DNA from: Candidatus Omnitrophota bacterium
Lineage (GTDB): Bacteria > Omnitrophota > Gorgyraeia > Aquiviventales > Aquiviventaceae
Assembly: GCA_016190215.1 (NCBI GenBank)
Contig: JACPRA010000027.1
Coordinates: 6,659-70,658, forward strand
Length of the DNA: 64,000 nt
Direction of reading: 5' to 3'
This document shows, in pieces, positions 17,583-38,386 of this stretch (position 1 is its first letter; each line of letters opens with the position of its first letter). The translations under genes and the position numbers were made by a program. The notes beneath the pieces are model-generated. The model saw nothing but the letters and a program-made list of their open reading frames with translations, ran no database searches and was not told where the DNA came from.

Positions 17583-17612
17583 TTGATGCGCGGCGAGCGC
17601 GTATGATATAGT
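17583..17612 (+). promoter_or_regulatory. Sigma70-type promoter (TTGATG-18 nt-TATAGT) feeding the riboswitch leader
   Basis: Read directly from the sequence. The spacing and -10 form match other candidate promoters in this window. Confidence 0.4.
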
Positions 17613-17619
17613 TCAGACA

Positions 17620-17753
17620 GAGACGATCGACGAACGGGCAAACCTCCGCCACACATCGTGGCGGACCCGCCGAGGGTGTAGGGGCGGGCGCCGCAAGGCA
17701 GGGACGCAAAGCTTCTGACCCCGCGCGCGCGGGGTAGCAGGGCTGCCGAATGG
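17620..17753 (+). promoter_or_regulatory. c-di-GMP-I (GEMM-I) riboswitch aptamer
   Basis: Contains the hallmark segments GGGCAAACC (17636-17644), GGGACGCAAAGC (17701-17712) and GGUAGCAGGGCUGCCGAAUGG (17732-17753). For comparison, V. cholerae Vc2 has GGGCAAACC...GGGACGCAAAGCC...GGUAGCGGGGUUACCGAUGG. The first hairpin carries an enlarged branched insert. Confidence 0.65.
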
Positions 17754-17766
17754 CACACGTGGACCC

Positions 17767-17799
17767 GCACGCCCTGGCACCAGGGCGTGCAATTTTTTT
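17767..17799 (+). terminator. Intrinsic terminator (riboswitch expression platform)
   Basis: GCACGCCCT-GGCACC-AGGGCGTGC stem-loop followed by AATTTTTTT. It sits just before the SD (GAGGGGGAG) and the ATG at 17816. Confidence 0.8.
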
Positions 17800-17815
17800 G
17801 AGGGGGAGCAGGCGC

Positions 17816-18073
17816 ATGAACGGACCGCATCTTCGGGCGCACCGGGTCATTGCCTCCTTAAACCGCGAGCAGGTGGACGCCTTGGATAAGGTCGGCAAGG
17901 ATGCCCTCTTTTCCGCCGGGGTGAAGCTCTCCCGCACGCACATCATCTCCGTCTTGGTCAACGTGCTCCAACGGCTCCACGTCAGCGGCAACGGGGTTCG
18001 GACCCCGGACGAGCTGGAGCAGCGGATTCTAGGCCGGGTCACGAAAGGTCGAGGAGGAAAGCCCCATGGCTGA
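17816..18073 (+). CDS. Small protein, possible ribbon-helix-helix fold (function unknown)
   Basis: Strong SD upstream of the ATG at 17816; the track start at 17750 lies inside the riboswitch and terminator. The N-terminus HRVIASLNREQVDALDKV looks like a beta-strand plus helix. The stop overlaps the next gene. Confidence 0.45.
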   Translation: MNGPHLRAHRVIASLNREQVDALDKVGKDALFSAGVKLSRTHIISVLVNVLQRLHVSGNGVRTPDELEQRILGRVTKGRGGKPHG

Positions 18074-19499
18074 AACGCGGGAACCCCGGCGGCTGGGCGT
18101 CGTGCCCCAGGGCATTCGTTTGGACGTGCTGTGCGCGTTTTTGCTGATGTCGGTGGTGCCGCTGGTGGTGTTGCTGCTGGTCGCCGGCTGGTTTGCGTTT
18201 CCAAGCGTTCGGGAGTTCTACCACTTGGAGCAGTGGTTTCCGCTGATCGCGAGCCCCTCGGAGGCCACATGGTGGCTGCTGAGCATCCTGACGCTGACGA
18301 TGGCCATTTCGCTGCTGGGCAGCGCTTACCTGGCCGTGAAGATCATCACGCCGGTCATTCATTTGAGCCATCACGCCAAATCGCTGGCCGCCGGCGATTA
18401 TGACGCGCGAATGACCGATGACGCCCGCACCGGCGAGCTGGGCGATCTCAGCGCCGCCTTGAAGAAGCTGACGTCGCAGATCCGCACGAATATGGTCGAG
18501 CTCAAGCAGCTGGGCGATCGCACCACCCAGATGAACTTTGAGATCAACACGCGCATGGTAATGCTCTCCGGCCTGCTGCAGATCGGCGAGCTGATCGGCG
18601 GTGGGGCGGGGTTGGACATCGTGCTGGACCTGGTGGTGGAGAAGCTGGCCTTGCTGGATCCCCAAGGGTTCAGCTTCCTGTCCTTGCAGCCGGTGGAAGG
18701 CTTGCCCGTGACCTTGCGGCGCAGCCACAACGTGGATCTGGGCCGCCTGACGATCCCGCCGCCGAAGCCGGCCACGGTCACGATCGACGCCGGGCATCGC
18801 CCGAGCGCCGGCCTGGAGCCGCTCTGGAAGCAGTTGGACGGGGCCAATGTGGTGTTACAGCCGGTGTTCGTCCGCGGCAAGCCGGTCGGGATGCTGGGGG
18901 TGGGCAATCGGTATCCGGAGTTCGCTTGGACGCAGGAGTCTGTGGACTTGGCCGGGATCTTCGCGAAGCAGATTTCCATTGCGCTGGAGAACGATTTGCT
19001 GTTGCGCAAGACCAAGCTGCTGGCCATCCATGATGAGCTGACCGGCGCGTATAACGAAACCTATGTCCGGCAGCGGCTGACGGAAGAGCTTAAGCGCGCC
19101 CTCTTGTACCAGCGCCCCTGCGCGCTGGCGATGTTCGCGATCCCCGGCTTGGCGGACTATCGGCGGCGCGCCGGCGAGCCGCAGAGCGAGCAAGTGCTGA
19201 AGCAGGCCGTGCGGATCATCCAGGAATCCGTGACGGACATTGACCGGGTCGGCCGGTTCGGCGGCAACGAGATCGCGGTGCTGCTGCCGGAGCGGAGCAA
19301 GCGCCAGGCCTTGGAGGTGGCGGAGGCCGTGCGCCGGCGCGCCAACGCGTCGTTGGCGGAGCTCGCCGCCGGCGATGCGCTGGCCCTGGTCAGCAGTGTC
19401 GTCGAAAATCCACTGGATGGCGTGACGGCGGATGAGCTGATCACCAAGGCCTCCGCGGCCCTCTCGAAGGCGTCTCCAACACAAGGACACGGCGCATGA
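18066..19499 (+). CDS. Membrane HAMP-GAF-GGDEF protein with degenerate active site (GGNEI)
   Basis: Two TM helices and a HAMP-like segment (PVIHLSHHAKSLAAGDYDARM...GELGDLSAALKKL). C-terminal GGDEF fold (DELTGAYNETYV...RFGGNEIAVLLPE). GGDEF is replaced by GGNEI (19260-19274), and the metal-binding DxD region reads FAIPGL. Confidence 0.75.
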   Translation: MAETREPRRLGVVPQGIRLDVLCAFLLMSVVPLVVLLLVAGWFAFPSVREFYHLEQWFPLIASPSEATWWLLSILTLTMAISLLGSAYLAVKIITPVIHLSHHAKSLAAGDYDARMTDDARTGELGDLSAALKKLTSQIRTNMVELKQLGDRTTQMNFEINTRMVMLSGLLQIGELIGGGAGLDIVLDLVVEKLALLDPQGFSFLSLQPVEGLPVTLRRSHNVDLGRLTIPPPKPATVTIDAGHRPSAGLEPLWKQLDGANVVLQPVFVRGKPVGMLGVGNRYPEFAWTQESVDLAGIFAKQISIALENDLLLRKTKLLAIHDELTGAYNETYVRQRLTEELKRALLYQRPCALAMFAIPGLADYRRRAGEPQSEQVLKQAVRIIQESVTDIDRVGRFGGNEIAVLLPERSKRQALEVAEAVRRRANASLAELAAGDALALVSSVVENPLDGVTADELITKASAALSKASPTQGHGA

Positions 19500-20572
19500 G
19501 CGTTTCCGCCCGACCCACCATGGAACACCTGCTGCGGCTGATGGTGGAGCAGGGGGCCACGGATTTGCATCTGACCGCCAATGCCCCGCCGCACCTGCGG
19601 CTGGACGAACAGCTGGTGGCGACGGACCACGGCGTGCTCAAAGGCGAGGACGTGCGCGAGCTGGCGCACAGCTTGTTGTCGCCCGACAAAGCGGAACGGC
19701 TGGAGCGGTGGAAAGAGCTGGATTTCGCGTTTTCCATCGAGGGGCTGGCGCGGTTCCGCGCCAACTATTTCTTCCAGCAGGGCTATATCGGGGTGGCGAT
19801 CCGCATGCTGCCGTTTCGCATCCAAGGCTTCGAGGAGCTGGGCCTGCCTGCCAAGGTCTTGACGGAGTGGTGCAATAAGCCCAAGGGGCTGGTCCTCATC
19901 ACCGGGTCCACCGGCTCGGGTAAAACCACGACCCTCGCGGCCATGGTGGACTACTTGAACAACACCAAGCCCTACCACATCGTCACCATCGAAGACCCGG
20001 TGGAGTATGTGCATACCGGCAAGCGCGCGATCGTGGACCAGCGGGAAGTCGGCGCGGATACGCAGTCCTTCGCGCAGGCCTTGAAGCACTCGCTCCGCCA
20101 GGATCCGGACGTCATCCTGATCGGAGAGATGCGGGACCTGGAAACCATTGAGACGGCGCTCATCATGGCGGAAACCGGCCATCTGGTCTTGGCGACCCTC
20201 CATACGTCCGACGCCGTGCAGACGGTCAACCGGATCGTGGACGTGTTCCCGTCCCATCAGCAAAACCAGGTGCGCAGCCAGCTGTCGCTGGAGCTGTTGG
20301 GCGTGCTCTCCCAACAGTTGATCCCCAAATCCAGCGGCCGGGGGCGCGTGCTGGCCGTGGAAGTGCTGCTGGCCAATCATGCCGTGCGGTCGCTGGTGCG
20401 GGAGCAGAAAGTCCACCAGCTCTATTCCGTGATCCAGACGGCCCAGAAAGACGGCATGAAGACGATGAACCAGTCCTTATATGAGCTGTATCTCAACCGG
20501 GTCATTACGCTGGAGGAGGCGTTGGCGCGGTCCACGGACCCCGACGACCTCTTGCGGCTGACGAAACGCTGA
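19496..20572 (+). CDS. pilT: Type IV pilus retraction ATPase PilT
   Basis: Walker A GSTGSGKTTTLAAM, the AIRNLIRE-like VRSLVREQK, and a PilT-type length of 358 aa with no N-terminal T2SSE_N domain. Confidence 0.9.
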   Translation: MSVSARPTMEHLLRLMVEQGATDLHLTANAPPHLRLDEQLVATDHGVLKGEDVRELAHSLLSPDKAERLERWKELDFAFSIEGLARFRANYFFQQGYIGVAIRMLPFRIQGFEELGLPAKVLTEWCNKPKGLVLITGSTGSGKTTTLAAMVDYLNNTKPYHIVTIEDPVEYVHTGKRAIVDQREVGADTQSFAQALKHSLRQDPDVILIGEMRDLETIETALIMAETGHLVLATLHTSDAVQTVNRIVDVFPSHQQNQVRSQLSLELLGVLSQQLIPKSSGRGRVLAVEVLLANHAVRSLVREQKVHQLYSVIQTAQKDGMKTMNQSLYELYLNRVITLEEALARSTDPDDLLRLTKR

Positions 20573-20600
20573 GCCCGAGCGGATTACAGGACGGAGCGGC

Positions 20601-21095
20601 ATGGCCAAGCGCATCATCACAAAGCGGATCGGCGACATCCTGCTGGAGCGGGGAATCGTCAACCGCCAGGAGCTGGAGCAGGCCTTGGCGCAGCAAAAGG
20701 AGCGCGGGGGCCTGTTGGGCCAAGTGCTGGTGGAGATGGGGGCGGTCACGGAAGAGGAGGTCGCCCTGGCGCTGACGGCCCAGTACGGTTTTCCCTATCT
20801 GCCGCTGGAGAGCTATGAGATTGACGACGCGATTGCCCGCTTGGTGCCGGAACAGGTGGCCCGGCAATACGTGCTGATTCCGATTGATCAGATCGGGAAT
20901 GCCTTGTCCGTGGCCATGGCGGATCCCTCCAACCTCCAGGCCGTGGAAGACATCGAGCTGCTCACCAGCTGTATCGTGCAGACGTTTGTCAGCACGCCCT
21001 CGGACATCCGCAAGGCGATCGGCCGCTGCTATCCCTCCGCGTCCGCCGGTCCCGCGCCGGCGTCCGGGCCCTCACCCAGCGAGCCGCGGCCATGA
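20601..21095 (+). CDS. Stand-alone T2SSE_N/MshEN domain protein (predicted c-di-GMP receptor)
   Basis: Residues 9-61 give two 24-residue MshEN motifs separated by a 5-residue spacer: RIGDILLERGIVNRQELEQALAQQ-KERGG-LLGQVLVEMGAVTEEEVALALTAQ. No ATPase domain; the protein ends in a Pro/Ser-rich tail. Confidence 0.75.
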   Translation: MAKRIITKRIGDILLERGIVNRQELEQALAQQKERGGLLGQVLVEMGAVTEEEVALALTAQYGFPYLPLESYEIDDAIARLVPEQVARQYVLIPIDQIGNALSVAMADPSNLQAVEDIELLTSCIVQTFVSTPSDIRKAIGRCYPSASAGPAPASGPSPSEPRP

Positions 21096-22843
21096 TGAGC
21101 TTCAAGGACCGCATGATGGAGGCCCTCGTGGGGAACCACGTGTTGACGCGCGAGCAGATCGAAGCCGCCCTGAAATTTCAACAGACCAGCGGCGGCAGCC
21201 TGCAGAAGGTGCTGGTCGAGCGCGGGTTCATCACGGAGAGCGCCTTGCTCTCCGCCATCAGCCAGGGGCTGGGCATCCCGCAGATTCGGCTGGCGCGCAT
21301 GAAGATCGACCCGACGCTCAAAACGCTGCTTTCCAGGGAAATCGCCAAGCAGTACCAGCTGATCCCGATCGCCTGCATGGGGCAGACCCTGACGGTGGCG
21401 ATGGCCGATCCGCTGAACATTTTTGCGCTCGATACCTTGACGACCATGACGGGCTTGTCCATCAATCCGCTCCTGGCGACCGCCGGGGACATCCAGGAAG
21501 CCATTGACGTGTACTACGGCACCGGGGTCGAGGAAACATTGCGGCAGATGGTCCGGGAGACGCGGCCCGTCGCGCCGGACCGCGCGCCGGCTCGTCCGCC
21601 CCGCCCGGAGGAGCCGCCGAAGAAATCCGCCCGGCCGGCGGGCTTGACCCAAGAGCCTCCCGTCGTGCGGATGACCGATATGCTGTTGGCGAAGGCGGTG
21701 CAGCTGCGCGCGTCGGATTTATTGATCGAGCCGCTGGAGCATGCCTTCCGCGTGCGCTATCGCGTGGACGGCGTGCTGCAGGAAGGCGAGGCGCCGCCCC
21801 GGCAGTTCCAGCAGGCCGTGGTCTCCCGGATCAAGATCCTGGCGGAATTGAACATTGCCGAGCGCCGCCTGCCGCAGGATGGTCATTTCAACGCGCTCAT
21901 GGACGGCCGCCCGGTGGACTTCCGCGTGTCCGTGCTGCCCGCGACGTTCGGAGAGCGGGTGGTGCTGCGGATTTTGGATAAGCGGCAGGTCAAGCTGGAT
22001 CTGAGGACCCTCGGATTCCACCCGGATGATTTGAGCATGCTGCAGCGTCTGGCTCAGCAGCCGCACGGGTTGGTGCTGTGCACCGGGCCCACCGGCTCGG
22101 GCAAAACCACGACCTTGTATTCCCTGCTGACGACGGTGGATCGCCCCGAGAAAAACCTCGTCACGGTGGAGGACCCCGTCGAATTCCAGTTGGAAGGCGT
22201 CAACCAGGTCACGGCCCGCGCCGACATCGGCTTGACGTTCGCCGCGGCGCTGCGGTCCATCCTCCGCCAGGATCCGGATGTCATCATGGTGGGAGAGATC
22301 CGTGACGCCGAAACCGCGGACATGGCCGTCAAGGCCGCCTTGACCGGGCACTTGGTGCTCAGCACCCTCCACACGAACAGCGCCGCCGGCACCGTCGTGC
22401 GGCTGGTCAATATGGGCGTGGAGCCCTTCCTGCTGAACTCGTCGCTCCTGGCGGTTATTGGGCAGCGGCTTGTCCGGCGCATCTGCTCTTCGTGCCAGAA
22501 GGCCTATCGTCCGCCGGAGGCCCTTGCCAAAAAATTCGGCCTGGTGGATGCCCGCGGGCGCGTCGTGGAGCTGGTCAAGGGGGAAGGCTGCGGGGCGTGC
22601 TTTCAATCCGGCTACCGGGGGCGGGAGGTGATCGCGGAGGTGCTGACGATCGTGCCCCCGATGCGCGAGCTGATCCTGCACCGTCCCCAGGAGCGCGAGC
22701 TGGAAGAGAGCGCCCGCCAGTCCGGCATGCGGACCTTGCGCGAGCACGGCCTGCAGAAAGCGATCGCGCACCTGACGTCGTTGGATGAGGTCATCCGCAC
22801 CACGGTCGGCGAATCGGTGGAGCTGGGGAGTGCCGCGCCATGA
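21092..22843 (+). CDS. pilB: Type IV pilus/T2SS assembly ATPase (PilB/GspE family), copy 1
   Basis: T2SSE_N domain, Walker A CTGPTGSGKTTTLYS, Asp/His boxes, and a tetracysteine motif (CSSC...CGAC). Confidence 0.9.
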   Translation: MMSFKDRMMEALVGNHVLTREQIEAALKFQQTSGGSLQKVLVERGFITESALLSAISQGLGIPQIRLARMKIDPTLKTLLSREIAKQYQLIPIACMGQTLTVAMADPLNIFALDTLTTMTGLSINPLLATAGDIQEAIDVYYGTGVEETLRQMVRETRPVAPDRAPARPPRPEEPPKKSARPAGLTQEPPVVRMTDMLLAKAVQLRASDLLIEPLEHAFRVRYRVDGVLQEGEAPPRQFQQAVVSRIKILAELNIAERRLPQDGHFNALMDGRPVDFRVSVLPATFGERVVLRILDKRQVKLDLRTLGFHPDDLSMLQRLAQQPHGLVLCTGPTGSGKTTTLYSLLTTVDRPEKNLVTVEDPVEFQLEGVNQVTARADIGLTFAAALRSILRQDPDVIMVGEIRDAETADMAVKAALTGHLVLSTLHTNSAAGTVVRLVNMGVEPFLLNSSLLAVIGQRLVRRICSSCQKAYRPPEALAKKFGLVDARGRVVELVKGEGCGACFQSGYRGREVIAEVLTIVPPMRELILHRPQERELEESARQSGMRTLREHGLQKAIAHLTSLDEVIRTTVGESVELGSAAP

Positions 22844-24558
22844 GCAGCATGCAAACCCGTCTCGTTGACGTCTTGATTGCCAAGGGATTGGCCAGCCGGG
22901 AACAGCTGGTTGCGCTCCAAACCGAGGCGCGCAGCGGCAAGCGGTTCGGACAGCTGCTGATTCAGCAGGGCATCCTGACCGCGGAGACGCTCGTCGGGCT
23001 GCTCTCGCAGGAGCTGGGGGTGCCCAGCTTATCGCTGTCCAAATATCGGTTGGATCCGAAAGTGGCGGGGTTGATTCCGGAGCGGGTGGCCCGCCAATAC
23101 ACGATGATCCCGATTTCCCAGTTCGGCCAGCGGCTCGTGGTGGCCATGGCCGACCCGGTGGACTTGTTCGCCCTGGAAGACGTGAAAGCCCTCACGCACT
23201 ATGCGGTGGATCCCGTGCTGGCCAAGGCCTCGGAAATCGAGCAGGCCATCGAGCAGAGCTATGGCGGCATGCGGGCCAGTTTTCCATCAACGCCTCCGGC
23301 GGCGGACGCCGGCGGGGGCGAGGACAAGGACGGCGGCGCCCTCCAGAGCGGGGAATTGGAGAGCGCGGTCCAGCTCCTCCTGGCCGAGGATGCCAGCGAC
23401 GCCCCGGCCGTCAAGGTGATCAACCTGATGCTGCTCGAGGCCCTGCGCCAGCGGGCCTCCGACATCCACCTCGAGCCGGCGTCCGACGCCGTGCGCGTGC
23501 GCTACCGGGTTGATGGGCGCCTGGCGGAAGCCCACCGGTTGCCGAAGCGGGCGCAAAGCACGGTGCTCACCCGCCTAAAAATCATGGCGGGGCTGGACAT
23601 TACCGAATCGCGCTTGCCGCAGGATGGGCGGTTTAAAGTCCGGCTGGATGTGCGGGAGGTGGATTTCCGCGTCTCGGTGCTGCCGGTGGTGCACGGCAAC
23701 AAAATCGTCTTGCGCGCGCTGGATAAGAGCAGCCTCGCCGCGGGGTTGGAGCAATTAGGGTTTTCCCCGCGATCGGTCGCCCCCCTCAAAGACGCCGTGG
23801 CGCGGCCCCACGGCATGATCTTGGTGACCGGACCCACCGGCTCCGGCAAATCCACGACGCTGTATTCCATGCTGCAGCAGCTCAACCTGCCCACGCGCAA
23901 CATCATCACCATCGAGGACCCGGTGGAGTATCAGCTCAACGGCGCCACCCAGGTCCAGGACAACCCGGAGATCGGGCTGACCTTCGCGTCCGGGTTGCGG
24001 TCCATCCTGCGGCAGAATCCCGACATCGTGATGATCGGGGAAATCCGCGACTTTGAAACCGCCGACATCGCCATGAAGGCCAGCCTGACCGGCCACCTGG
24101 TGTTGTCCACCCTGCATACCAACGACGCGCCCTCGTCCGTGACCCGGTTGGTGGACATGGGGGTGGAGCCCTTCCTCATCGCCTCCAGCCTCACCGTGAT
24201 CGAGGCGCAGCGGCTGGTGCGCAAGCTCTGCGCGAAGTGCCGGCAGCCCATCGAGCCGCCCCGGGCGCTCCTGGAACAGTTGGCGTTCAGCCCGCCGCCG
24301 GGGAGCGCGTTCTACCGCGCCGTCGGCTGCCCCAGCTGCAACGGGATGGGCTACCGCGGGCGGATGGGGCTGATCGAGGTCTGCCCGGTGGATGAAGGGT
24401 TGCGCGAGCGGATCGTCTCCCAGGCCCACGCCGGGGAGTTGAAAGCGTATGCGCGCGCCCACCTGGGCATGGTGACGTTGCAGGAGGATGGGATCGCCAA
24501 AGCCGCCGCCGGCTTGACGACGCTGGAAGAAATCCTGCAGGCGACGTCGGAGCTGTGA
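22840..24558 (+). CDS. pilB: Type IV pilus/T2SS assembly ATPase (PilB/GspE family), copy 2
   Basis: T2SSE_N domain with a good second MshEN-like half (RFGQLLIQQGILTAETLVGLLSQ), Walker A VTGPTGSGKSTTLYS, and tetracysteine (CAKC...CPSC). Confidence 0.9.
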   Translation: MSSMQTRLVDVLIAKGLASREQLVALQTEARSGKRFGQLLIQQGILTAETLVGLLSQELGVPSLSLSKYRLDPKVAGLIPERVARQYTMIPISQFGQRLVVAMADPVDLFALEDVKALTHYAVDPVLAKASEIEQAIEQSYGGMRASFPSTPPAADAGGGEDKDGGALQSGELESAVQLLLAEDASDAPAVKVINLMLLEALRQRASDIHLEPASDAVRVRYRVDGRLAEAHRLPKRAQSTVLTRLKIMAGLDITESRLPQDGRFKVRLDVREVDFRVSVLPVVHGNKIVLRALDKSSLAAGLEQLGFSPRSVAPLKDAVARPHGMILVTGPTGSGKSTTLYSMLQQLNLPTRNIITIEDPVEYQLNGATQVQDNPEIGLTFASGLRSILRQNPDIVMIGEIRDFETADIAMKASLTGHLVLSTLHTNDAPSSVTRLVDMGVEPFLIASSLTVIEAQRLVRKLCAKCRQPIEPPRALLEQLAFSPPPGSAFYRAVGCPSCNGMGYRGRMGLIEVCPVDEGLRERIVSQAHAGELKAYARAHLGMVTLQEDGIAKAAAGLTTLEEILQATSEL

Positions 24559-24568
24559 GGCCCCCGCC

Positions 24569-25777
24569 ATGCCGACCTTTGCGTACGTCGTCAAAGACAA
24601 AGCGGGCCGGACGCACAACGGCATGCTGGAGACCCCCTCCCGCCAATCCCTTATCGAGTTGTTGTGGAAGCAGGATTTCGTCGTGCTTTCGATCGAAGAG
24701 CGGCAGGCCGCCCGGCGGATGGCGGCGTGGTCCGCCCCCCGCGTGCCCGCGCAGCACCTCGTCATCTTTGCGAGGCAGTTGGCCACCATGGTGGCCAGCG
24801 GCATCCCCATCCTCGGCGCGCTGGACATCCTGCAATCGCAACTGGAGGACCGGGGGTTCCGCCAGGTGCTCAAGCAGATCCAGCGCGATGTCGAAAGCGG
24901 CAGCAGCCTGTCGGAGAGCCTGGCCAAGTATCCGCGCATTTTCTCCGATCTCTTTGTCAACATGATCAAGGCCGGCGAGTCCTCCGGCCGCCTGGATGAA
25001 ATCCTCGACCGGCTCGCCGGCTATATCGAGAAAACCGACGGGCTGCGCCGGAAGGTCAGCACGAGCATGTTTTACCCGATCCTGGTGTCGGTCCTGGCCG
25101 CGGGGATCACCGGGTTTCTGGTCATCGTCGTGGTGCCGAAATTCCGCGAAATTTTCACCTCCCTCGGCGGGCAGTTGCCGCTGCCCACCCAGTTGCTGTT
25201 GAACGCCAGCGATTACCTGCGCCGGTATTTCCTGGCCTATGTGGCCGTGGGCGTCCTGGCGGTGTTTGCGGGGCGCGCGCTCCTCGGCACGAAGCCGGGC
25301 CGGTTGTGGTTTGATCGGATGAAGCTCAAGTTTCCGGTGTTCGGGCCGTTGCTGCAAAAGGTGGCGATCGCCCGCTTCGCCCGTACGTTGGCGACGCTGG
25401 TGCGCTCCGGCGTGCCCATCCTGGCGGCGTTGGAGATCGTGGCCAGGACCGCCGGCAATGCGGCCATTGAGCGGGCGGTCATGAAGGCGCGGACCAGCAT
25501 TCGCGAGGGGGTGAACATCGCCGATCCGCTGACCCAAAGCGGCATGTTTCCCCCTATGGTGACGCGGATGATCGCCGTGGGGGAGAAGACCGGCGAACTG
25601 GAAAAAATGCTCTCCAAGATCGCGGAATTTTATGAGAGCGAAGTGGATGCCATGGTCTCCGCGCTGACGAGCCTGATTGAGCCGATCGTCATCGCCGTCC
25701 TGGGGGTGATCATCGGCGGGATCGTGGTCGCGCTGTTCCTGCCGATTTTCAAGATCTCGCAACTGGTCACCGGATAA
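24569..25777 (+). CDS. pilC: Type IV pilus platform protein PilC (GspF family)
   Basis: Duplicated GspF domains and three TM segments. Located after the pilB genes. Confidence 0.9.
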   Translation: MPTFAYVVKDKAGRTHNGMLETPSRQSLIELLWKQDFVVLSIEERQAARRMAAWSAPRVPAQHLVIFARQLATMVASGIPILGALDILQSQLEDRGFRQVLKQIQRDVESGSSLSESLAKYPRIFSDLFVNMIKAGESSGRLDEILDRLAGYIEKTDGLRRKVSTSMFYPILVSVLAAGITGFLVIVVVPKFREIFTSLGGQLPLPTQLLLNASDYLRRYFLAYVAVGVLAVFAGRALLGTKPGRLWFDRMKLKFPVFGPLLQKVAIARFARTLATLVRSGVPILAALEIVARTAGNAAIERAVMKARTSIREGVNIADPLTQSGMFPPMVTRMIAVGEKTGELEKMLSKIAEFYESEVDAMVSALTSLIEPIVIAVLGVIIGGIVVALFLPIFKISQLVTG

Positions 25778-25791
25778 GGGGCAAGGAAATC

Positions 25792-25821
25792 TTGACGTTT
25801 CTTTGGCGATGTATGTATAGT
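25792..25821 (+). promoter_or_regulatory. Sigma70-type promoter (TTGACG-18 nt-TATAGT) for the pilin gene
   Basis: Read directly from the sequence. It lies about 80 nt upstream of the pilin ATG. Confidence 0.45.
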
Positions 25822-25899
25822 AAAGGTTGGACTTGTAACTTCTTGTGCGGCAGGGGGTTTTTGGCGCGGCTTTATTCATCATCAAGGAGGGAGTCCACC

Positions 25900-26415
25900 A
25901 TGGGCACCAGGCATCGGCGGGGGTTTACGCTCGTTGAAATCATGATCGTGGTTGCCATTATCGCGTTGCTGGCGGCTATTGCGATTCCGAACGTGCTGCG
26001 CGGACGGACCAGCGCCAATGAGGCGGCGGTCATCGGGAATATGCGGGCGGTCAACAGCGCGCTGCAGATGTTTCAATCCGTCAACAATGTGTTCCCGACG
26101 ACGTGGAACACGGAAATGTACGGGGCGGACTGCGCGGCCGCAACCGCGCCAAACCCGGATTACGGCCCGCCGTCATTCTGCGTGAACCTGGACGGCGGCG
26201 CGGCGGTGCAAGGCTACACCTACACGTACGCGGATGGCGCGGCCCCGGTCAACTCGTATACGGTGCTGGCGGTTCCGCAGACGCTCGGCACGACCGGCAC
26301 GCGGTCCTTCTACACCGATCAGTCCGGGGTGCTCCGGCACTGCACCGGGACGGGCACCGTCGCCAATATCGCGGACGAATCCACGGTTGACACGGCCCCG
26401 ACCGCTTGCGATTAA
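25900..26415 (+). CDS. pilA: Type IV major pilin (prepilin)
   Basis: AAGGAGGGA SD. Class III signal MGTRHRRG|FTLVEIMIVVAIIALLAAIAIPN with Glu at +5. Two Cys pairs in the C-terminal half. Confidence 0.85.
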   Translation: MGTRHRRGFTLVEIMIVVAIIALLAAIAIPNVLRGRTSANEAAVIGNMRAVNSALQMFQSVNNVFPTTWNTEMYGADCAAATAPNPDYGPPSFCVNLDGGAAVQGYTYTYADGAAPVNSYTVLAVPQTLGTTGTRSFYTDQSGVLRHCTGTGTVANIADESTVDTAPTACD

Positions 26416-26492
26416 GTCCGAGTGCGTCATCGGTACGTTCAGCTAGCGTGGACGATCCCTCAGAACGTCTGCGTGCTCTGAGGAGAGTTGTC

Positions 26493-27032
26493 ATGCGGCC
26501 GCGCGCGGCATTTACGATGGTGGAGCTCATCATCGGCGCCGCCATCCTCGCCATCGCCCTCTCGGCGCTGCTCGGCTCGTTCGTCGGGCAGGTGACGCTC
26601 AACGAGCACTCCCGCAACCTCACCTGGGCCGCCAACGATGCCACGCGGGTCATGGAGCAGTTGCGGGTGCAGAACATGAACCCCTGCGTCGGCGGCAGCG
26701 TGCCCTCCGGCAACCCGCCGGCCGGCTTTGGCAGTTGGGATGCGTGGCTGGACGCCCCGACGGGCGGGGGCGGCAAGAGCATTCAACCGGCCCCCGCCAC
26801 GCAGGAGCTCATCGTCGTGACCTGCCGCAATCAAGCCGACACGGCCGCCTGCATTGCCACCGATGACCCGATTCGGCTGACGGTGGCGGTATGTTGGCGC
26901 CACCGCAGCCGCACGATCGGCGAATGCACGTGGGACGGCGCCGCCCTCGCGGCGAATCCCGGCGCCAGCGGCGATGCGAATGTGACGGAATCTCCCGCGA
27001 TGCTCTCCACGATCATGACGTGCCGCCAATGA
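26493..27032 (+). CDS. Minor pilin/pseudopilin
   Basis: GAGGAGAG SD. Leader MRPRAA|FTMVELIIGAAILAIALSALLG. The residue at -1 is Ala rather than Gly. Confidence 0.7.
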   Translation: MRPRAAFTMVELIIGAAILAIALSALLGSFVGQVTLNEHSRNLTWAANDATRVMEQLRVQNMNPCVGGSVPSGNPPAGFGSWDAWLDAPTGGGGKSIQPAPATQELIVVTCRNQADTAACIATDDPIRLTVAVCWRHRSRTIGECTWDGAALAANPGASGDANVTESPAMLSTIMTCRQ

Positions 27033-27038
27033 TGCTTC

Positions 27039-27177
27039 GAGAGGCAAGGCCCGCCGCATCGCTAGCCCGCCCCTCCGAGGCGGGCTGCGCTCGACTGATG
27101 TTCTCGCTCGTCCCGCCTGCACGGCGGGACACCATGGCCGCTCGAACATCAGACGTGCGGCTGAGCCCTTGCCTCTC
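27039..27177 (+). other. Nested multi-helix structured region between minor pilin genes
   Basis: Four to five complementary pairs found by hand. GAGAGGCAAGG/CCTTGCCTCTC; GCCGCA/TGCGGC; AGCCCGCC/GGCGGGCT; CTGATGTTC/GAACATCAG; GTCCCGCC/GGCGGGAC. Confidence 0.55.
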
Positions 27178-27772
27178 TCAGAGGAGAAAAAAATCACAGT
27201 CTGATTCTCGAGGATTTACATTAGTGGAGCTGTTCATCGCGGTGGCGATTTTCTCCGGCATCATCGGGGCGGTGTTCGTGAGCTTCCTTATCGGGCAGCG
27301 CTCCTTCCGCTCCTCGGAGGCGTTCATTCAAGTCCAGCAAGAAGCGCGCCGGGCGTTGGACAACATGGTGAAGGAGCTGCGCGAAGCCGGAGGGACCATC
27401 ACCGGCCCGCCCACCGAGCTGCGGTTTCAGGTCGCGCTGGGATATAATCTGCCGCCGCCGTGCCCGGTGAACGATGTGTGTTGGGGCGCCACCGACAGCA
27501 GCGGGACGGACCAGCCGAACTGGAGTATCCGCTATCGCCTCACCGGCGCGCAGCTGCGGCGCGAGGTGCTCGACACGGCTGGAGCCACCCGCGCCTCGAG
27601 CGTGCTCGGCAATGATGTCAGCCAGTTGACGTTTGCGTATATTGGTGGTAATACGCAACTAGTCACCATTGATCTTCAGGTGCAGCAGGTTTCATCGCAA
27701 CTTCCCGGGGGCAGCATGAGCACCGGCACGACACCCTTGCGCACGCAGGTCCGATTACGGAATCCGTCATAG
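27134..27772 (+). CDS. Minor pilin/pseudopilin (PilW/GspJ-like)
   Basis: Prepilin motif SRG|FTLVELFIAVAIFSGIIGAVF. The start is uncertain: the nearest upstream in-frame ATG is 27134, giving an unusually long leader, and it lies inside a structured region. Confidence 0.6.
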   Translation: MAARTSDVRLSPCLSQRRKKSQSDSRGFTLVELFIAVAIFSGIIGAVFVSFLIGQRSFRSSEAFIQVQQEARRALDNMVKELREAGGTITGPPTELRFQVALGYNLPPPCPVNDVCWGATDSSGTDQPNWSIRYRLTGAQLRREVLDTAGATRASSVLGNDVSQLTFAYIGGNTQLVTIDLQVQQVSSQLPGGSMSTGTTPLRTQVRLRNPS

Positions 27773-27777
27773 TCTGC

Positions 27778-28815
27778 ATGCCTGCGTCATCGTCCTCTCT
27801 CCTTCAGTCGGGCTGGAGCCTGCTCTCCCGGTTGGCGACCGTGTCGCCGAAAGAGCCCAAGCTCACCATCGGGCTCGACGTGGGGACCTCGTCCATCAAG
27901 ACTGTGGCGCTCGGCCAGCGCCGCCTGGGCCCGCGGCCGGTGCTGGGGCAGCACGTGCTGGAGCTGGGATCCGGCAGCGAGGTGCATCTACCGCAGGCCA
28001 TCCAGCGGGCGGTGGCGGCGCTGCGGGTGCCGACGAAAGCGGTCAGCGTGTCGGTCAGCGGCCAGTGGGTGATCATGCGGGTGATCGAGATGCCGGTGAT
28101 GAAGCCGGACGAGCTGGCCCTGGCGCTCCCCATTGAGGCGCAGCGTTACGTGCCGTTTCGGATTGAAGAGGTGATCGTCGACGGCACCATCCTCGGCCCG
28201 GCCGACGGCAACAAGATCTGGGTGGTGTTGGTCGCCTGCAAACGGGACCTGGTGGAGCGCCGGGTCGGGTGGGTCCGCCAGGCCGGCCTGGAGCCGGTGG
28301 TGGTGGATGTGGATGCCCTGGCCGTGGCGAACGCCGTGTGCGCCGGCGCCGACAACGGGTCCTCGACGGCAACCCGGGCCGTCATCAACGTCGGCACGCA
28401 GTGGACCAACCTGGCGGTCATCAAGAGCGGCAATCCGTATTTGATCCGCGACATTCCCTGGGGCATCGAAAAGCTCAGCCGCCGCGTGGCTGAGCAAACC
28501 GGCCTGGAAGAGCGTGCCGTCATCGGGCATCTGAAGCAATCCGAGGCCGTGCCGCCTGCGGTGCAGGAAGCCGTGGCGATCATGTGCGAGTCGCTTACCA
28601 CGGAACTGCAGCTCTCCTTTGATTTCTTCGAAAACCACTTCGGCCCGCCGCCTCAGCAACTGTTGGTGACCGGCGGGGCGGGCCAGTCCGCCTCGTTCCT
28701 GGAGGCGCTCAAGCGCCATGTGTCGCTGCCGATCGTGCCGTGGACGCCGGCGGCCGGGCTCGGGGGGCAGTTCACCGTGGCCTACGGGCTGGCGTTGCGC
28801 GGAGGCGCGGCATGA
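27778..28815 (+). CDS. pilM: Type IV pilus assembly protein PilM (actin-like ATPase fold)
   Basis: IGLDVGTSSIKTVAL phosphate-1 motif. Followed by pilNOPQ. Confidence 0.85.
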   Translation: MPASSSSLLQSGWSLLSRLATVSPKEPKLTIGLDVGTSSIKTVALGQRRLGPRPVLGQHVLELGSGSEVHLPQAIQRAVAALRVPTKAVSVSVSGQWVIMRVIEMPVMKPDELALALPIEAQRYVPFRIEEVIVDGTILGPADGNKIWVVLVACKRDLVERRVGWVRQAGLEPVVVDVDALAVANAVCAGADNGSSTATRAVINVGTQWTNLAVIKSGNPYLIRDIPWGIEKLSRRVAEQTGLEERAVIGHLKQSEAVPPAVQEAVAIMCESLTTELQLSFDFFENHFGPPPQQLLVTGGAGQSASFLEALKRHVSLPIVPWTPAAGLGGQFTVAYGLALRGGAA

Positions 28816-29429
28816 GCGCGCGCCTCGTAGCTGTCAACCTCCTGCCGGAGGGGCAGCGCAAACCCGTCACAAGTTCGCTTGAGCAGTTTCATCGGTCGCC
28901 GCTGGCGTGGTTGATCGGGGGCGGGCTGGTCGGGGTGGCGTTGGTGTTGTTCGTCATGTTGCGCGTCTATCAAGCCCAGACGGCGCAGGTGGCCGCGCAG
29001 CTGCAAACCCTGGACCAGCAGAAGCTGGTCGTGTTTCAGTTGAAGGACTCCCTGCAGGCCCTGCGCGCGCAGCAGCAGGCGTACCAGCAGGTCCAGCAGG
29101 ATCGCAGCGATTGGGCCCACCACCTCAACACGATTTCCGATCAGGTGCCGGATGGGGTGTGGTTCAGCGATTTGACGCTGGATCCGGTCCGCGGGTTGGT
29201 GATTGAGGGCTCGGCGATCAGCGAGGGCGGGGAAGAGATGGTGCGGATCGGCCGGTTCGTCCAGGAGTTGAAAGCCGATCCCCGGTTCGCGCAGTCCATC
29301 CAGGACATTCAAATTGAAGCGATCAAGCGCGGACAAGAAGGCGACATCGAGCTGGTGTTTTTCACCATTACCTGCACGCTGGCTCCGCCGCGCGCGGCCG
29401 CGGCGGCCTCCGCGACAGGCGGCGCGTGA
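28812..29429 (+). CDS. pilN: Type IV pilus assembly protein PilN
   Basis: The ATG at 28812 overlaps the pilM stop (ATGA). N-terminal VNLLPE motif, one TM helix and a coiled coil. Confidence 0.8.
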   Translation: MSARLVAVNLLPEGQRKPVTSSLEQFHRSPLAWLIGGGLVGVALVLFVMLRVYQAQTAQVAAQLQTLDQQKLVVFQLKDSLQALRAQQQAYQQVQQDRSDWAHHLNTISDQVPDGVWFSDLTLDPVRGLVIEGSAISEGGEEMVRIGRFVQELKADPRFAQSIQDIQIEAIKRGQEGDIELVFFTITCTLAPPRAAAAASATGGA

Positions 29430-30055
29430 CGATGGCGGAGAAGCCGTCTCGGCGGGTGGTGGCGGGCCTGGCGATTCTTGCGGCCCTCATTGCGTGGGTG
29501 TATTATGCCTATGTGGTGCAGCCGATGGCGCAGGGCATCACGCGGCTGCGGGAGGAATTGCGGCGCGCCCGCATTCAAGCCAGCGCGATCGAGCAAGCGA
29601 TCGCGCATGTGCCGGAACTGCAGCAGGAGCAGGCCGCGCTGGCCGACGACGTGGCCCGGCTGCGCGGCGCGTTGCCGAGCGAGCGTGAGCTGGCCTCGGT
29701 GATCCAGTTCATTTCCGATCTAGCCAGCCAGACGAACGTGAAAATCCAATCGGTCTTTCCTCAGCGCTCGTCCGACGAGGAGGCGGCCTCGGGTCGCCCC
29801 AGCCCCGCGTCGTCCGTAGGGCTGCTGTACCAGGAGATTCCCATCCAAATTGACGCGGTCGCCGGGTTTCACCAATTCGGCAGCTTCCTGAGCCGGGCGG
29901 AGCATGGTCCGCACGTGCTGCGGGTCCGCAGCCTCCGCATCAGCGGCAATCCCCGCGAGCCCCGCCGGCAGACGATCAAGCTCGTCATGATGACCTATGT
30001 GACGCCGGGCGCGCCGGTCGGCGCGGCAGCGCCTGAACCGCGCGCGGTGCCGTGA
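29426..30055 (+). CDS. pilO: Type IV pilus assembly protein PilO
   Basis: TM helix, coiled coil and a ferredoxin-like periplasmic domain. Overlaps the pilN stop. Confidence 0.8.
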   Translation: MTMAEKPSRRVVAGLAILAALIAWVYYAYVVQPMAQGITRLREELRRARIQASAIEQAIAHVPELQQEQAALADDVARLRGALPSERELASVIQFISDLASQTNVKIQSVFPQRSSDEEAASGRPSPASSVGLLYQEIPIQIDAVAGFHQFGSFLSRAEHGPHVLRVRSLRISGNPREPRRQTIKLVMMTYVTPGAPVGAAAPEPRAVP

Positions 30056-30062
30056 TCCGGCC

Positions 30063-30509
30063 ATGTCCAGCCTCTCCTCGATGCACCAGATCATCGTGCC
30101 GATGTTGGGACTGCTGATCCTCGCGGGAGCCAGCGGCGCCGACCCGCAAGAGCACCCTACCTATGATGCCAAACGCCGCCGCGACCCCTTCACTCCCTTG
30201 GTGCGGGAGGGCCGGTTGGTCGGGGCGTCGTCAGCAGACGCGTCCGCGGCGGTGATCGTCTCCTCCTCCACGTTGGTCTTGGCGGGCATCCTCTGGGACC
30301 CCGCCGGCCGCTCCGTGGCGTTGGTCAACGAGACCGAAGTGAAGGTCGGCGACCTCATTGGAGAGTACCGGGTGATCGAGATCCGTCCCGATGCCGTGGT
30401 CTTGGACCGCGACGGGAAACAGCACGTGTTGCACATGACCTATGAGGGGTCCAGCAAGGGACACAGCCAGCCGGAGACATCGGCAGCGACAGGAGGGGAA
30501 GGCCCGTGA
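30063..30509 (+). CDS. pilP: Type IV pilus assembly protein PilP-like
   Basis: Signal/lipoprotein-like N-terminus. C-terminal beta domain (LVLAGILWDPAGRSVALVNETEVKVGDLIGEYRVIEIRPDAVVL). Confidence 0.65.
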   Translation: MSSLSSMHQIIVPMLGLLILAGASGADPQEHPTYDAKRRRDPFTPLVREGRLVGASSADASAAVIVSSSTLVLAGILWDPAGRSVALVNETEVKVGDLIGEYRVIEIRPDAVVLDRDGKQHVLHMTYEGSSKGHSQPETSAATGGEGP

Positions 30510-31909
30510 GGAGACAACGCTGGTGGATCGGAGCCCTGCTCGGCTGCTGCCTCGTGGCCCCAAGCCTGCTGCGGGCGCAAGAGGACGTGGAGGTCTCGCC
30601 CGAGGCTGAGACGCGCGAGGACGCGGCCGGCGCCGCGTCCGAATCGCCAGCATCCGCGGCGGCGGTTGCTGCCGCCCCGGTGTCGGCGCCGAGCGAGGCC
30701 GGATTGATCACGCTGGATTTCAAGGACGCCGACATCCGCCAGGTCTTGCGGGTGCTCTCGCTGAAGAGCGGGGTGGATATCGTCGCCAGCCCGGATGTGG
30801 AAAGCCTCGTCTCCATCAAGCTGACCAACGTGCCCTGGGAGCAGGCGCTGGACATCATCCTGCGGACGTACGGCTTCGCCTACGAGCGCAAAGACAAGGT
30901 CATCCGGGTGATGACGCAGGAAGCCGTGGAGCAGGAGGCCCTTGCCACGGAAGTGTTCCCGCTGAACTATGCCAAGGCCGCCGACGTGTCCAAAGTGATC
31001 GAAGAGATGCTCTCAGAGCGGGGCAAAGCGAAATTCGACGAGCGAACCAATACGCTCATCGTGACAGATCTGCCCTCCAACCTGTTTCAGTTGCGGAGCG
31101 TGATCACGCGCTTGGATCAGGCGACGGCGCAAGTCCACATCGAATCGCGCTTCGTCGAGACGCGCCTGACGCGGGATGAAAACCTGGGGTTTGATTGGAG
31201 CGATTCCATGAGCATGACGTGGACGCTGCCCCAGGTGACCGGCACGATCCCGCTGCCGCGGCGCCTGCAATCGGTCAGCGCGGCGGCGGACGGCGCGGTC
31301 ACGCTGGGGACCTTGAATCCGGGCAGCCTGAACACGGTGATCAACGTCTTAAAATCGCGCGTGGAGACGCGGGTGATCTCCAATCCCACCATCGTGACCT
31401 TGGACAACAAAGAAGCCAGCGTCCAGGTGGGCACGGATGTGAATATCCCGAATTTCCAGATCGACCCCTCCACCGGCCGCGCCACCGTCACCGGTTTCCA
31501 GACCCGCTCGACCGGCATTTTGTTGAAGGTGACGCCGCACATCAACCTGCAAGGGGAGATCGTCTTGGACGTGAAGCCGGAGATCACCTCGGTCGGGACG
31601 GATCGGACGTTCGCGCAGGGGATCACCTTTCCCGACTTCGACGTGCAGAAAGCGCAGACGCAAGTCCGCTTGCTCAATGGGCAGACGTTGGCGATCGGCG
31701 GGCTCAAGCGGCAGGCCGAGCGCGTGACGTTGAGCAAGGTGCCGATCTTGGGCGATGTGCCGATCCTGGGATGGTTTTTTACCAATCGGCGGGAGCAGAC
31801 CCCCTCCGGCCAGGACCAGCTGGATCTGCTGATTTTCTTGACGGTGCATCTGGTGACCCAGGGTTCGCCGCAGGCGGTGGTGGCGGCCCAGCCGCCGTCG
31901 GCGCCCTAA
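30506..31909 (+). CDS. pilQ: Type IV pilus secretin PilQ
   Basis: N0/STN-like ITLDFKDADIRQVLRVLS, and secretin domain motifs (VISNPTIVTLDNKEASVQVG, ILLKVTPHIN, LAIGGL, VPILGDVPILGWFF, LLIFLTVHLV). Confidence 0.9.
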   Translation: MRRQRWWIGALLGCCLVAPSLLRAQEDVEVSPEAETREDAAGAASESPASAAAVAAAPVSAPSEAGLITLDFKDADIRQVLRVLSLKSGVDIVASPDVESLVSIKLTNVPWEQALDIILRTYGFAYERKDKVIRVMTQEAVEQEALATEVFPLNYAKAADVSKVIEEMLSERGKAKFDERTNTLIVTDLPSNLFQLRSVITRLDQATAQVHIESRFVETRLTRDENLGFDWSDSMSMTWTLPQVTGTIPLPRRLQSVSAAADGAVTLGTLNPGSLNTVINVLKSRVETRVISNPTIVTLDNKEASVQVGTDVNIPNFQIDPSTGRATVTGFQTRSTGILLKVTPHINLQGEIVLDVKPEITSVGTDRTFAQGITFPDFDVQKAQTQVRLLNGQTLAIGGLKRQAERVTLSKVPILGDVPILGWFFTNRREQTPSGQDQLDLLIFLTVHLVTQGSPQAVVAAQPPSAP

Positions 31910-31913
31910 GCGA

Positions 31914-32171
31914 ATGCCGAAGGAGCTGCGAATGCGACACATGTCCACGCTCATGCTGGCCGCGGCCGCCGGGGCCGCGGCGACCTGGCTGGTGGCGCTG
32001 CCGACGCGCGTGACGGCGGCGTCCTCTCCCGCCGCGCGCGAGTCCAAGGCCGATCTGGCGGCGATCGATCGAAAATTAGACCAGATTGCGGATCAGCAGG
32101 TGCTGATCCTCCAGCAGCTTCAAGCGATGGCGGAAGAGCTGCGCATTATCAAGGTTCGCGCCACCCGCTAA
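31914..32171 (+). CDS. Small secreted coiled-coil protein (unknown)
   Basis: Signal-like N-terminus (MSTLMLAAAAGAAATWLVA) and a C-terminal heptad-rich helix. It begins 5 nt after pilQ and precedes the terminator-like hairpin. Confidence 0.4.
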   Translation: MPKELRMRHMSTLMLAAAAGAAATWLVALPTRVTAASSPAARESKADLAAIDRKLDQIADQQVLILQQLQAMAEELRIIKVRATR

Positions 32172-32196
32172 CACGCCTCCCTGAAGACATCAGCTC

Positions 32197-32233
32197 GCCG
32201 TTCGTGAAGCGTCTCTCGCGCTTCACGAACGGC
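32197..32233 (+). terminator. Perfect 15-bp stem-loop closing the pilus operon (no U-tract)
   Basis: GCCGTTCGTGAAGCG-tctctcg-CGCTTCACGAACGGC. A second small palindrome, GGTAGCG...CGCTACC, follows. Confidence 0.5.
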
Positions 32234-32275
32234 GCTTCACCAACCCTCTTGGTAGCGATTTCCGGTACCGCTACC

Positions 32276-36446: not shown

Positions 36447-36518
36447 GGGCCGGTAGCTCAGTGGTAGAGCAGGAGACTCATAATCTCTTGGTCGGACGTT
36501 CGATCCGTCCCCGGCCCA
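36447..36518 (+). tRNA. tRNA with CAT anticodon (elongator type; resembles tRNA-Ile2/lysidine class more than initiator)
   Basis: Hand-folded cloverleaf. Acceptor GGGCCGG/CCGGCCC, anticodon loop CTCATAA, T-loop TTCGATC. G1-C72 pairing and no GGG/CCC anticodon stem argue against an initiator. No encoded CCA. Confidence 0.85.
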
Positions 36519-36552: not shown

Positions 36553-36626
36553 GGGCGATTAGCTCAGTCGGTTAGAGCGCATGCCTCACATGCATGAGGT
36601 CAGAGGTTCGAGTCCTCTATCGCCCA
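36553..36626 (+). tRNA. tRNA-Val (CAC)
   Basis: Hand-folded cloverleaf. Acceptor GGGCGAT/ATCGCCC, anticodon loop CTCACAT, T-loop TTCGAGT. No encoded CCA. Confidence 0.9.
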
Positions 36627-38363: not shown

Positions 38364-38386
38364 GCGCGGCGGCTCTCATTCTTTCA

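Follow-up and report, generated by a model that had tools for sequence, protein, structure and literature searches.

A conserved type IVa pilus motor locus of Omnitrophota with a free MshEN protein, two PilB ATPases and, in one clade, a c-di-GMP-I riboswitch

Omnitrophota are a widespread, uncultured phylum, in which pili are obvious candidates for attachment to surfaces or cells. The present work concerns a type IVa pilus gene cluster in a metagenome-assembled genome (MAG) of a Candidatus Omnitrophota bacterium. The cluster occupies positions 17583-32234 of the window, by which we mean the whole stretch of 64,000 nucleotides that was analysed, and all its genes lie on the + strand. Two inputs of cyclic di-GMP (c-di-GMP) are recognisable from the sequence, a riboswitch in the leader and a free MshEN protein encoded beside two PilB ATPases, and the locus offers a concrete picture of possible pilus control in Omnitrophota.

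Cyclic-dinucleotide riboswitches before pilus genes, MshEN-type receptors in PilB and MshE, the multi-GSPII ATPase PilF, and the FimX-PilZ-PilB system are all known already. Cd1 of C. difficile, upstream of flgB, is a transcriptional OFF switch whose aptamer and terminator do not overlap; in the ON switch of Geobacter pilM, a GEMM-Ib riboswitch for cyclic GMP-AMP (cGAMP), the two are mutually exclusive (PMC9262584). A c-di-GMP-II riboswitch, also ON, precedes pilA1 of C. difficile (PMC6366702). V. cholerae MshE and Thermus thermophilus PilF carry their receptor domains on the ATPase polypeptide itself (PMC5013675, PMC11731258). The MshEN motif consists of two 24-residue repeats separated by a 5-residue spacer (PMC5013675). 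The domains GSPII-A, B, and C of PilF place binding-competent and decayed copies side by side; GSPII-B, in which motif II starts with Leu, binds c-di-GMP with a dissociation constant of 6 nM, and the degenerate GSPII-A does not bind (PMC11731258). In Xanthomonas and Pseudomonas, a degenerate GGDEF protein (FimX) and a small protein (PilZ) work with the N-terminal domain of PilB in pilus extension; c-di-GMP is bound by the EAL domain of FimX, and PilZ acts as an adaptor that does not bind it (PMC8389850, PMC5595344). No description of the present locus was found in the searchable papers on Omnitrophota with pili or c-di-GMP.

The riboswitch of the window is of the same class (RF01051) as Cd1 and, like it, has a non-overlapping downstream terminator. 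Cd1, however, controls flagellar genes, whereas the switch of the window precedes pilus genes, carries an insertion of 54 nucleotides in its aptamer, and has an OFF logic that is predicted. With the pilM and pilA1 switches, it shares the location of a cyclic-dinucleotide riboswitch in a type IV pilus leader; those are ON switches before pilM or pilA, whereas here the motor genes (pilT, pilB, and pilC) follow and the topology is of the OFF type. A class-I riboswitch before pilus motor genes that is predicted to switch OFF would be the opposite of the known ON switches of pilus genes. [quoted passage not shown] In PilF too, well-preserved and decayed copies occur together; the difference is that the best copy is a separate polypeptide and the decayed copies are on two ATPase paralogues. 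Such an arrangement touches on a broader question: can c-di-GMP be sensed apart from the ATPase, by a protein that motors share? The resemblance to FimX-PilZ-PilB appears to be a functional analogy only, as the locus has no EAL or PilZ domain and its small protein is the predicted binder. The earlier note on this DNA proposed a candidate novel regulatory system. What is new is an arrangement and not a new kind of system, since every component comes from a known family: a detached, well-conserved receptor beside two PilBs with decayed domains and a dead GGDEF membrane protein, fixed across a phylum, and in one clade a class-I riboswitch before the motor genes, probably an OFF switch.

Genes were assigned by matches to Pfam and NCBIfam profiles. 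The cluster most likely forms two transcription units. Unit 1 would comprise a promoter, a c-di-GMP-I aptamer, an intrinsic terminator, an open reading frame (ORF) of 85 codons, a HAMP-GAF-GGDEF protein, PilT, the free MshEN protein, PilB1, PilB2, and PilC; unit 2 would comprise a promoter at 25792, three prepilin-like genes, PilMNOP, and the secretin. Gene junctions are tight. The overlap at 18066/18073 reads ATGGCTGA, ATGA overlaps occur at 19496/19499, 21092/21095, and 22840/22843, and further overlaps join PilM to PilN (ATGA at 28812) and PilP to PilQ (GTGA). The earlier note had described a single co-directional pilus block with the first four of these overlaps, a GEMM-I-like leader, a dead GGDEF protein, a free MshEN domain, two PilBs with N-domains of differing conservation, and an internal promoter at 25792. 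All of these features are borne out by the scores given below; the single block holds as regards direction and probably divides into two transcription units, which that note itself had allowed.

The gene at 20601..21095 (+) encodes a stand-alone MshEN (GSPII) protein of 164 residues that is a predicted c-di-GMP receptor (NCBIfam NF053729 and Pfam MshEN). On the c-di-GMP motif model NF053729 (cutoff 38), it scores 62.4 bits (residues 9-61), compared with 43.1 bits for PilB1 and 33.6 bits for PilB2. Its C-terminal GSPII α/β subdomain matches Pfam PF05157 (76 bits, residues 62-148), and the protein aligns over its full length with structures of PilF, PilB, and MshE N-domains in the PDB (up to E = 2e-52). 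The two motifs read RIGDILLERGIVNRQELEQALAQQ-KERGG-LLGQVLVEMGAVTEEEVALALTAQ, in which the Leu that replaces Arg at the start of motif II is the sole deviation. G3, G10, and Q24 of both motifs are kept phylum-wide in the free protein; both PilBs have lost most of them. In PilB1 (21092..22843, +; T2SSE 447 bits, TIGR02538 603 bits), the N-domain is partly degenerate, with M and Q replacing Gly3 in both motifs and H replacing Gly10 in motif I. In PilB2 (22840..24558, +; T2SSE 447 bits, TIGR02538 619 bits), the N-domain is degenerate, V replaces Gly3 in motif I, and the LxxxLxxQ pattern is shifted. Intact tandem binding motifs are thus absent from both N-domains. The two ATPases share 43% identity, and both keep the Walker A and B motifs, the Asp and His boxes, and the tetracysteine motif. 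Because the motifs of the free protein are intact and the N-domains of PilB1 and PilB2 lack key glycines, the free MshEN protein is the likely c-di-GMP receptor of the locus. The most economical reading would be a detached receptor that serves two active motors; the free protein, which is translationally coupled to PilB1, would relay the c-di-GMP signal to them. Some of the sequence data do not sit easily with this. PilB1 passes the NF053729 cutoff, if marginally, and so may bind c-di-GMP itself. Beyond the clade of the window, motif I of the free protein starts with Q, T, or K instead of R, residues that the relaxed motif of Wang et al. 2016 does not cover, and this leaves some doubt about c-di-GMP affinity in those lineages; K and L are tolerated in GSPII-B of PilF. 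Stand-alone proteins of MshEN size are common in metagenomes (representative protein library). Metagenome proteins of 1000-1345 residues carry up to six MshEN/GSPII repeats, against three described for Thermus PilF.

The HAMP-GAF-GGDEF membrane protein (18066..19499, +; Pfam GGDEF, HAMP, and GAF) has a 100% identical counterpart at NCBI, in a Candidatus Omnitrophica MAG. The GGDEF domain of the protein retains a match at the level of the fold (74 bits), with the motif GGNEI. The GG[DE]EF motif is degenerate in all 22 aligned members of the family (variants GGNEI, SGNEI, NGNAI, and DDHDL). The RxxD I-site, five residues upstream of GGDEF, reads TDID in the window and [TS]xxD in 22/22 aligned members. 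Compared with active cyclases, the metal-binding LDxD has become MFAI and NDxxGH has become RRAGE. As judged from these residues, the protein is neither a cyclase nor an I-site c-di-GMP receptor; with the catalytic residues and the I-site both lost, nothing ties it to c-di-GMP binding. Few parts of the protein are as well conserved in the family as its two transmembrane segments and the short loop that connects them. Speculatively, the conserved transmembrane region hints at a partner or signal at the membrane, and a role as membrane sensor or as scaffold of the motor is the more probable one. The three stacked c-di-GMP layers of the earlier note are hereby reduced, as the GGDEF family has no GG[DE]EF, no metal-binding Asp, and no RxxD; the sequences support two layers, the riboswitch and the free MshEN protein.

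The GGDEF-family alignment (A1) retrieved 126 relatives from the genome collection, nearly all from Omnitrophota. The loci numbered with L are the best 80 of these 126, almost all in Omnitrophota MAGs; genes were mapped by tblastn, and presence was counted among loci with enough downstream DNA. The gene order is constant, even where the identity of the GGDEF protein is as low as 30%: PBP2 and RodA, a variable region, the degenerate GGDEF gene, PilT in some, and then MshEN, PilB1, PilB2, and PilC. MshEN follows the degenerate GGDEF gene in 60/61 loci, and PilB1 (53/54), PilB2 (37/38), and PilC (22/23) are nearly as constant; RodA and PBP2 lie upstream in 42/50 loci and PilT directly after the GGDEF gene in 37/61. 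The core junctions mostly overlap or span fewer than 30 nucleotides phylum-wide. The first PilB gene is of the PilB1 type and the second of the PilB2 type in 54/54 loci, which indicates that the duplication is ancient and the order fixed. MshEN is fused to pilB1 in 0/66 loci. By these gene maps, the core dGGDEF-(PilT)-MshEN-PilB1-PilB2-PilC, where dGGDEF denotes the degenerate GGDEF protein, is an ancient trait across the phylum, and the riboswitch and the small ORF are an addition specific to the clade of the window (the window and L003-L009). The co-conservation by which the earlier note proposed to judge the unit therefore holds for the protein core and fails for the riboswitch and small ORF. 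Other clades have radical-SAM or other genes between rodA and the GGDEF gene. At L040 (12009-15521), pilB1 and pilB2 are joined in one ORF of 1170 codons, the sole such locus; this is either a real fusion or an assembly error and, if real, would argue for both ATPases working together.

A different c-di-GMP device is found in another clade. In 16 loci without pilT after the GGDEF gene (L040 at 15524-16594, L057, L053, L077, L078, L030, L054, L064, L065, L025, L073, L032, L046, L061, L048, and L049), a REC-HD-GYP gene with intact HD and HHExxDGxGYP motifs lies between pilB2 and pilC; no homologue is present in the window. Its product is a candidate c-di-GMP phosphodiesterase inside the motor operon, as predicted from these motifs, and it forms an independent link of the operon to c-di-GMP. 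With a REC-HD-GYP protein in one clade and a riboswitch in another, one and the same motor operon has acquired different c-di-GMP devices. A relocation of pilT to the pilB2-pilC gap, considered for the third of loci in which it is absent after the GGDEF gene, was rejected, as that gap holds the REC-HD-GYP gene.

The leader starts with a promoter-like site found by consensus scan (17583..17612, +; TTGATG-18-TATAGT, TG-extended). The pattern CCTTGATGC-N17-GATATAGTT is kept upstream of the leader in the window, L003, L004, L005, L006, L008, and L009. The c-di-GMP-I (GEMM-I) aptamer follows at 17627..17750 (+; Rfam RF01051, 42.9 bits against a gathering score of 35), its first hairpin carrying the 54-nucleotide insertion of several hairpins. 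The ligand-contacting core is present in the cmscan alignment (GGCAAAC..., GACGCAAAGC, ...GCUGCC). A further distinction from the ON pilus switches is a G, the c-di-GMP-type residue, and not an A at the position that we take to be equivalent to G20 of Vc2. Homologous aptamers occur at the equivalent position in L003, L004, L005, L007, and L009, with a weak match in L006; those of the relatives score 35-60 bits on RF01051. Searches with Rfam, a regular expression for the core, and a covariance model of the local copies (R1) detected no other aptamer upstream of the GGDEF gene among the searched loci; the copies recovered by the regular expression were those of the covariance model, with two false matches inside pilB2 in addition. 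In an alignment of 12 related copies, which was fitted to the covariance model and so favours pairing, 92.6% of cells are paired and compensatory changes occur at 14/22 pairs (helices P1a and P1b); 0/500 shuffles reached the observed values, and slid controls gave 32-46%. The L005 aptamer (7181-7268), with 35.0 bits exactly at the Rfam threshold, has an A at the G20 equivalent, a change linked to cGAMP-selective GEMM-Ib.

The expression platform is an intrinsic terminator found by terminator scan (17767..17799, +), with a 10-bp GC-rich stem (17767-17790) followed by T7 (AATTTTTTT). Equivalent terminators sit 16-20 nucleotides past the aptamer in L003, L004, and L009. The first gene after the riboswitch (17817..18073, +) encodes a protein of 85 residues with no assigned function, identical to an 85-residue NCBI protein. 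Its ATG at 17817 lies past the terminator and is preceded by the Shine-Dalgarno sequence GAGGGGGAG. The ORF most likely begins here. The start at 17750 given in the earlier note, an in-frame ATG at the last base of the aptamer, was rejected because the terminator would then fall inside the gene, the Shine-Dalgarno sequence before 17817 is strong, L003 has no equivalent upstream ATG, and the NCBI protein has 85 residues. Among the examined loci, the small ORF is limited to the window and L003-L009; none of its ~138 homologues has a Pfam domain. The AlphaFold2 model is all-helical (pLDDT, the predicted local distance difference test score, 69), and a Foldseek search against the PDB gave no match with E < 1. 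L008 (9560-9700) still has the conserved promoter, the small ORF, and a GC-rich hairpin but no detectable aptamer, which looks like a riboswitch loss.

The segment 17500-17560, which lies after the rodA stop and before the promoter at 17583, contains eight GTGACA/TGTCAC/TGTAAC hexamers in 60 nucleotides, arranged as overlapping palindromes, and holds 6 of the 21 GTGACA/TGTCAC sites of the window. L005, L009, and L003 have motifs like AAGTGACA before this promoter as well. The hexamer cluster may be an operator. The idea that the small ORF encodes a ribbon-helix-helix protein that binds these repeats was dropped in view of the all-helical model and the blank Foldseek search. In L055 (8973-9055), L051 (1554-1638), and L067 (2099-2190), c-di-GMP-I aptamers lie on the − strand, opposite to the GGDEF gene and ~1 kb upstream of it; they stand before a secreted low-complexity protein, which in L055 has 286 residues and no Pfam domain.

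The window aptamer and terminator share no nucleotides, and both form in the minimum free energy (MFE) fold; the same is true of L003, L004, and L009. Since the two are non-overlapping and able to fold together, as in Cd1, we infer that the riboswitch is probably an OFF switch, in which ligand binding favours termination. High c-di-GMP would then reduce expression of the small ORF and the motor genes. In L005, L006, and L007, the AUG of the small ORF lies ~5-10 nucleotides past the aptamer and, in L007, inside the 3' strand of P1 (CAUCG...CGAUG), so that a ligand-stabilised P1 would conceal the start codon. The ON/OFF assignment rests on topology and on this one translational relative. The folding data also include results that do not help it: duplexes between the 3' strand of the aptamer and the 5' arm of the terminator, examined as an antiterminator, are no better than shuffled sequences (p = 0.05-0.34), and in partial-transcript MFE folds (ViennaRNA), the 5' arm pairs with differing partners in the window, L003, L004, and L009. 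No specific antiterminator helix is claimed, as the MFE partners differ and the duplex energies are at shuffled level. The opposite logic, in which c-di-GMP prevents termination and induces the motor operon, is the less probable one and still has an appreciable chance. It has models in the c-di-GMP-II switch upstream of C. difficile pilA1 and the cGAMP switch of Geobacter pilM, and induction would suit MshE- and PilB-type motors, which c-di-GMP usually activates (PMC5013675). In the partial transcript of the window, the 5' arm of the terminator pairs with the 54-nucleotide insertion at 17675-17689, so that more complex three-state schemes are possible. A simple antiterminator, however, finds no statistical support, the topology of the window is that of Cd1 (OFF) and not that of pilM (ON), and the start codons of L005-L007, so close to the aptamer or within P1, are hard to square with ligand-induced translation.

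Similar weighing applies to the proteins. Degenerate GGDEF domains often act as c-di-GMP receptors. The view that three c-di-GMP layers are stacked, with the dead GGDEF protein as a sensor of c-di-GMP or GTP like PelD, PopA, or FimX, draws on this established knowledge and on the fact that no other gene accompanies the MshEN-PilB genes as constantly as the GGDEF gene does; FimX-type degenerate proteins do control PilB in Xanthomonas and Pseudomonas (PMC8389850, PMC5595344). Known receptor-type GGDEF domains, however, use the RxxD I-site, which is [TS]xxD in every aligned member here, the GG[DE]EF motif, DxD metal site, and NDxxGH region are all lost, and the protein has no EAL or PilZ domain. 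We consider a third layer of this kind unlikely. Much less credible still is that the free MshEN gene is an artefact, the frameshifted or split N-terminus of a PilF-like multi-GSPII ATPase. The C-terminal tail of the protein is rich in Pro, Ser, and Ala and linker-like, the gene overlaps pilB1 by ATGA, and ATPases with 2-6 MshEN repeats are common in metagenomes, but MshEN is a separate ORF in 66/66 loci from many independent assemblies, with neighbouring GGDEF proteins of 30-100% identity, and identical proteins of 164 residues occur on independent Logan contigs. An ancient gene fission of MshEN from an ATPase is plausible; the split state is the conserved one. As to the machine itself, a type II secretion system or a DNA-uptake (competence) pilus instead of a type IVa pilus for motility or adhesion would account for the GspE scores of PilB1 and PilB2, which nearly equal their PilB-model scores, both being narrowly under the PilB equivalog cutoff, for a secretin narrowly below the PilQ cutoff, and for a PilP-like protein that weakly matches T2SSB and T2SSC. 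This we regard as improbable. The locus has a bona fide PilT (19496..20572, +; TIGR01420 pilT_fam, 477 bits against a cutoff of 319) with intact Walker A and B motifs, together with PilM, PilN, and PilO, models of GspC, GspL, GspM, and GspK gave no match, and the leader of the first pilin is short and of type IVa (G|FTLVE). A type IVa machine may itself serve competence.

The best overall explanation, which we think likely when taken as a whole, is that the cluster is the locus in an Omnitrophota chromosome that encodes a type IVa pilus. c-di-GMP would act on it at the RNA level in the clade of the window only and at the protein level phylum-wide. A more far-reaching proposal is tentative: the phylum would have a specific signalling module of its own in which a detached, trans-acting MshEN receptor is shared by two obligately paired PilBs with decayed receptor domains, the dead GGDEF membrane protein, which lacks an I-site and has a highly conserved transmembrane region, would supply a second, non-nucleotide input (e.g., from pilin or the cell envelope), and clades would have added either an OFF riboswitch and small protein or a REC-HD-GYP phosphodiesterase.

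The set of type IVa pilus proteins present comprises PilB, PilT, PilC, PilM, PilN, PilO, a secretin, and a prepilin with the N-terminus G|F(T/M)xxE; no prepilin peptidase PilD was found within 17583-32234, the rest of the window not having been screened. Unit 1 ends with the platform protein PilC (24569..25777, +; two Pfam T2SSF matches, 228 bits; NCBIfam PilC models ~400 bits). The promoter-like site of unit 2 (25792..25821, +; TTGACG-18-TATAGT) matches the consensus at 10/12 positions, the best in the region. A similar site, TTGAC[GA]-N17-[CT]ATA[GC]T, follows pilC in L004, L005, and L024 and is followed there by a GEMM-I riboswitch and a terminator. The pilins and PilMNOPQ would probably be transcribed from this second promoter, which in the window would escape riboswitch control; some relatives have their own riboswitch after it. 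It counts against the overall reading of the locus that both promoters are consensus matches only. The second c-di-GMP-I riboswitch of the relatives has a promoter and a terminator to itself and occupies the gap from pilC to the pilin gene, at 14353-14482 in L004, 15879-15963 in L005, and 12894-12982 in L024; the same gap in the window has a promoter only and no second riboswitch. In having an aptamer copy directly upstream of a pilin gene, these three loci resemble the ON pilus systems.

The first gene of unit 2 (25900..26415, +) encodes the major prepilin candidate (MGTRHRRG|FTLVEIM...), which matches N_methyl with E = 3.7e-9 and TIGR02532 above cutoff. Its start is the ATG at 25900. Two minor-pilin-like proteins follow, with probable start codons at about 26493 and 27134. 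One (26493..27032, +; MRPRAAFTMVELI...) scores 24 bits on N_methyl against a cutoff of 21.2; the other (27134..27772, +; ...SRGFTLVELF...) scores 19.5 bits, just below the cutoff, with GFTLVE in the translation. PilM (27778..28815, +; Pfam PilM_2, 115 bits), PilN (28812..29429, +; Pfam PilN, 31.9 bits), whose ATG at 28812 overlaps the pilM stop, and PilO (29426..30055, +; Pfam PilO, 48 bits) come next. The PilP-like protein (30063..30509, +) was assigned by its position between pilO and the secretin gene, the T2SSB and T2SSC matches being sub-threshold. The PilQ-type secretin (30506..31909, +) matches Pfam Secretin (132 bits), Secretin_N, and STN and scores 250 bits on TIGR02515, below the cutoff of 284. 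The last gene (31914..32171, +) encodes a predicted exported coiled-coil protein of 85 residues, with a hydrophobic N-terminus, a coiled-coil-like C-terminus, and 0 Pfam matches, which may be a secretin accessory protein.

The cluster ends in a hairpin without a U tract (32196..32234, +), assessed by fold energy and shuffles. The earlier note had placed a terminal hairpin here, correctly except for its length, which is 17 bp and not 15 bp. The stretch of 89 nucleotides that contains it (32172-32260) folds with -39.7 kcal/mol (z = -5.8), and 0/200 shuffles were as stable. The cluster is flanked by mrdA (14648-16429) and rodA (16426-17496) before it and by cvpA-dnaG after it, with a promoter-like site for cvpA at 32276. 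Farther downstream are tRNA genes at 36447-36518 and 36553-36626 and a bacterial class A RNase P RNA at 37986-38369 (169 bits).

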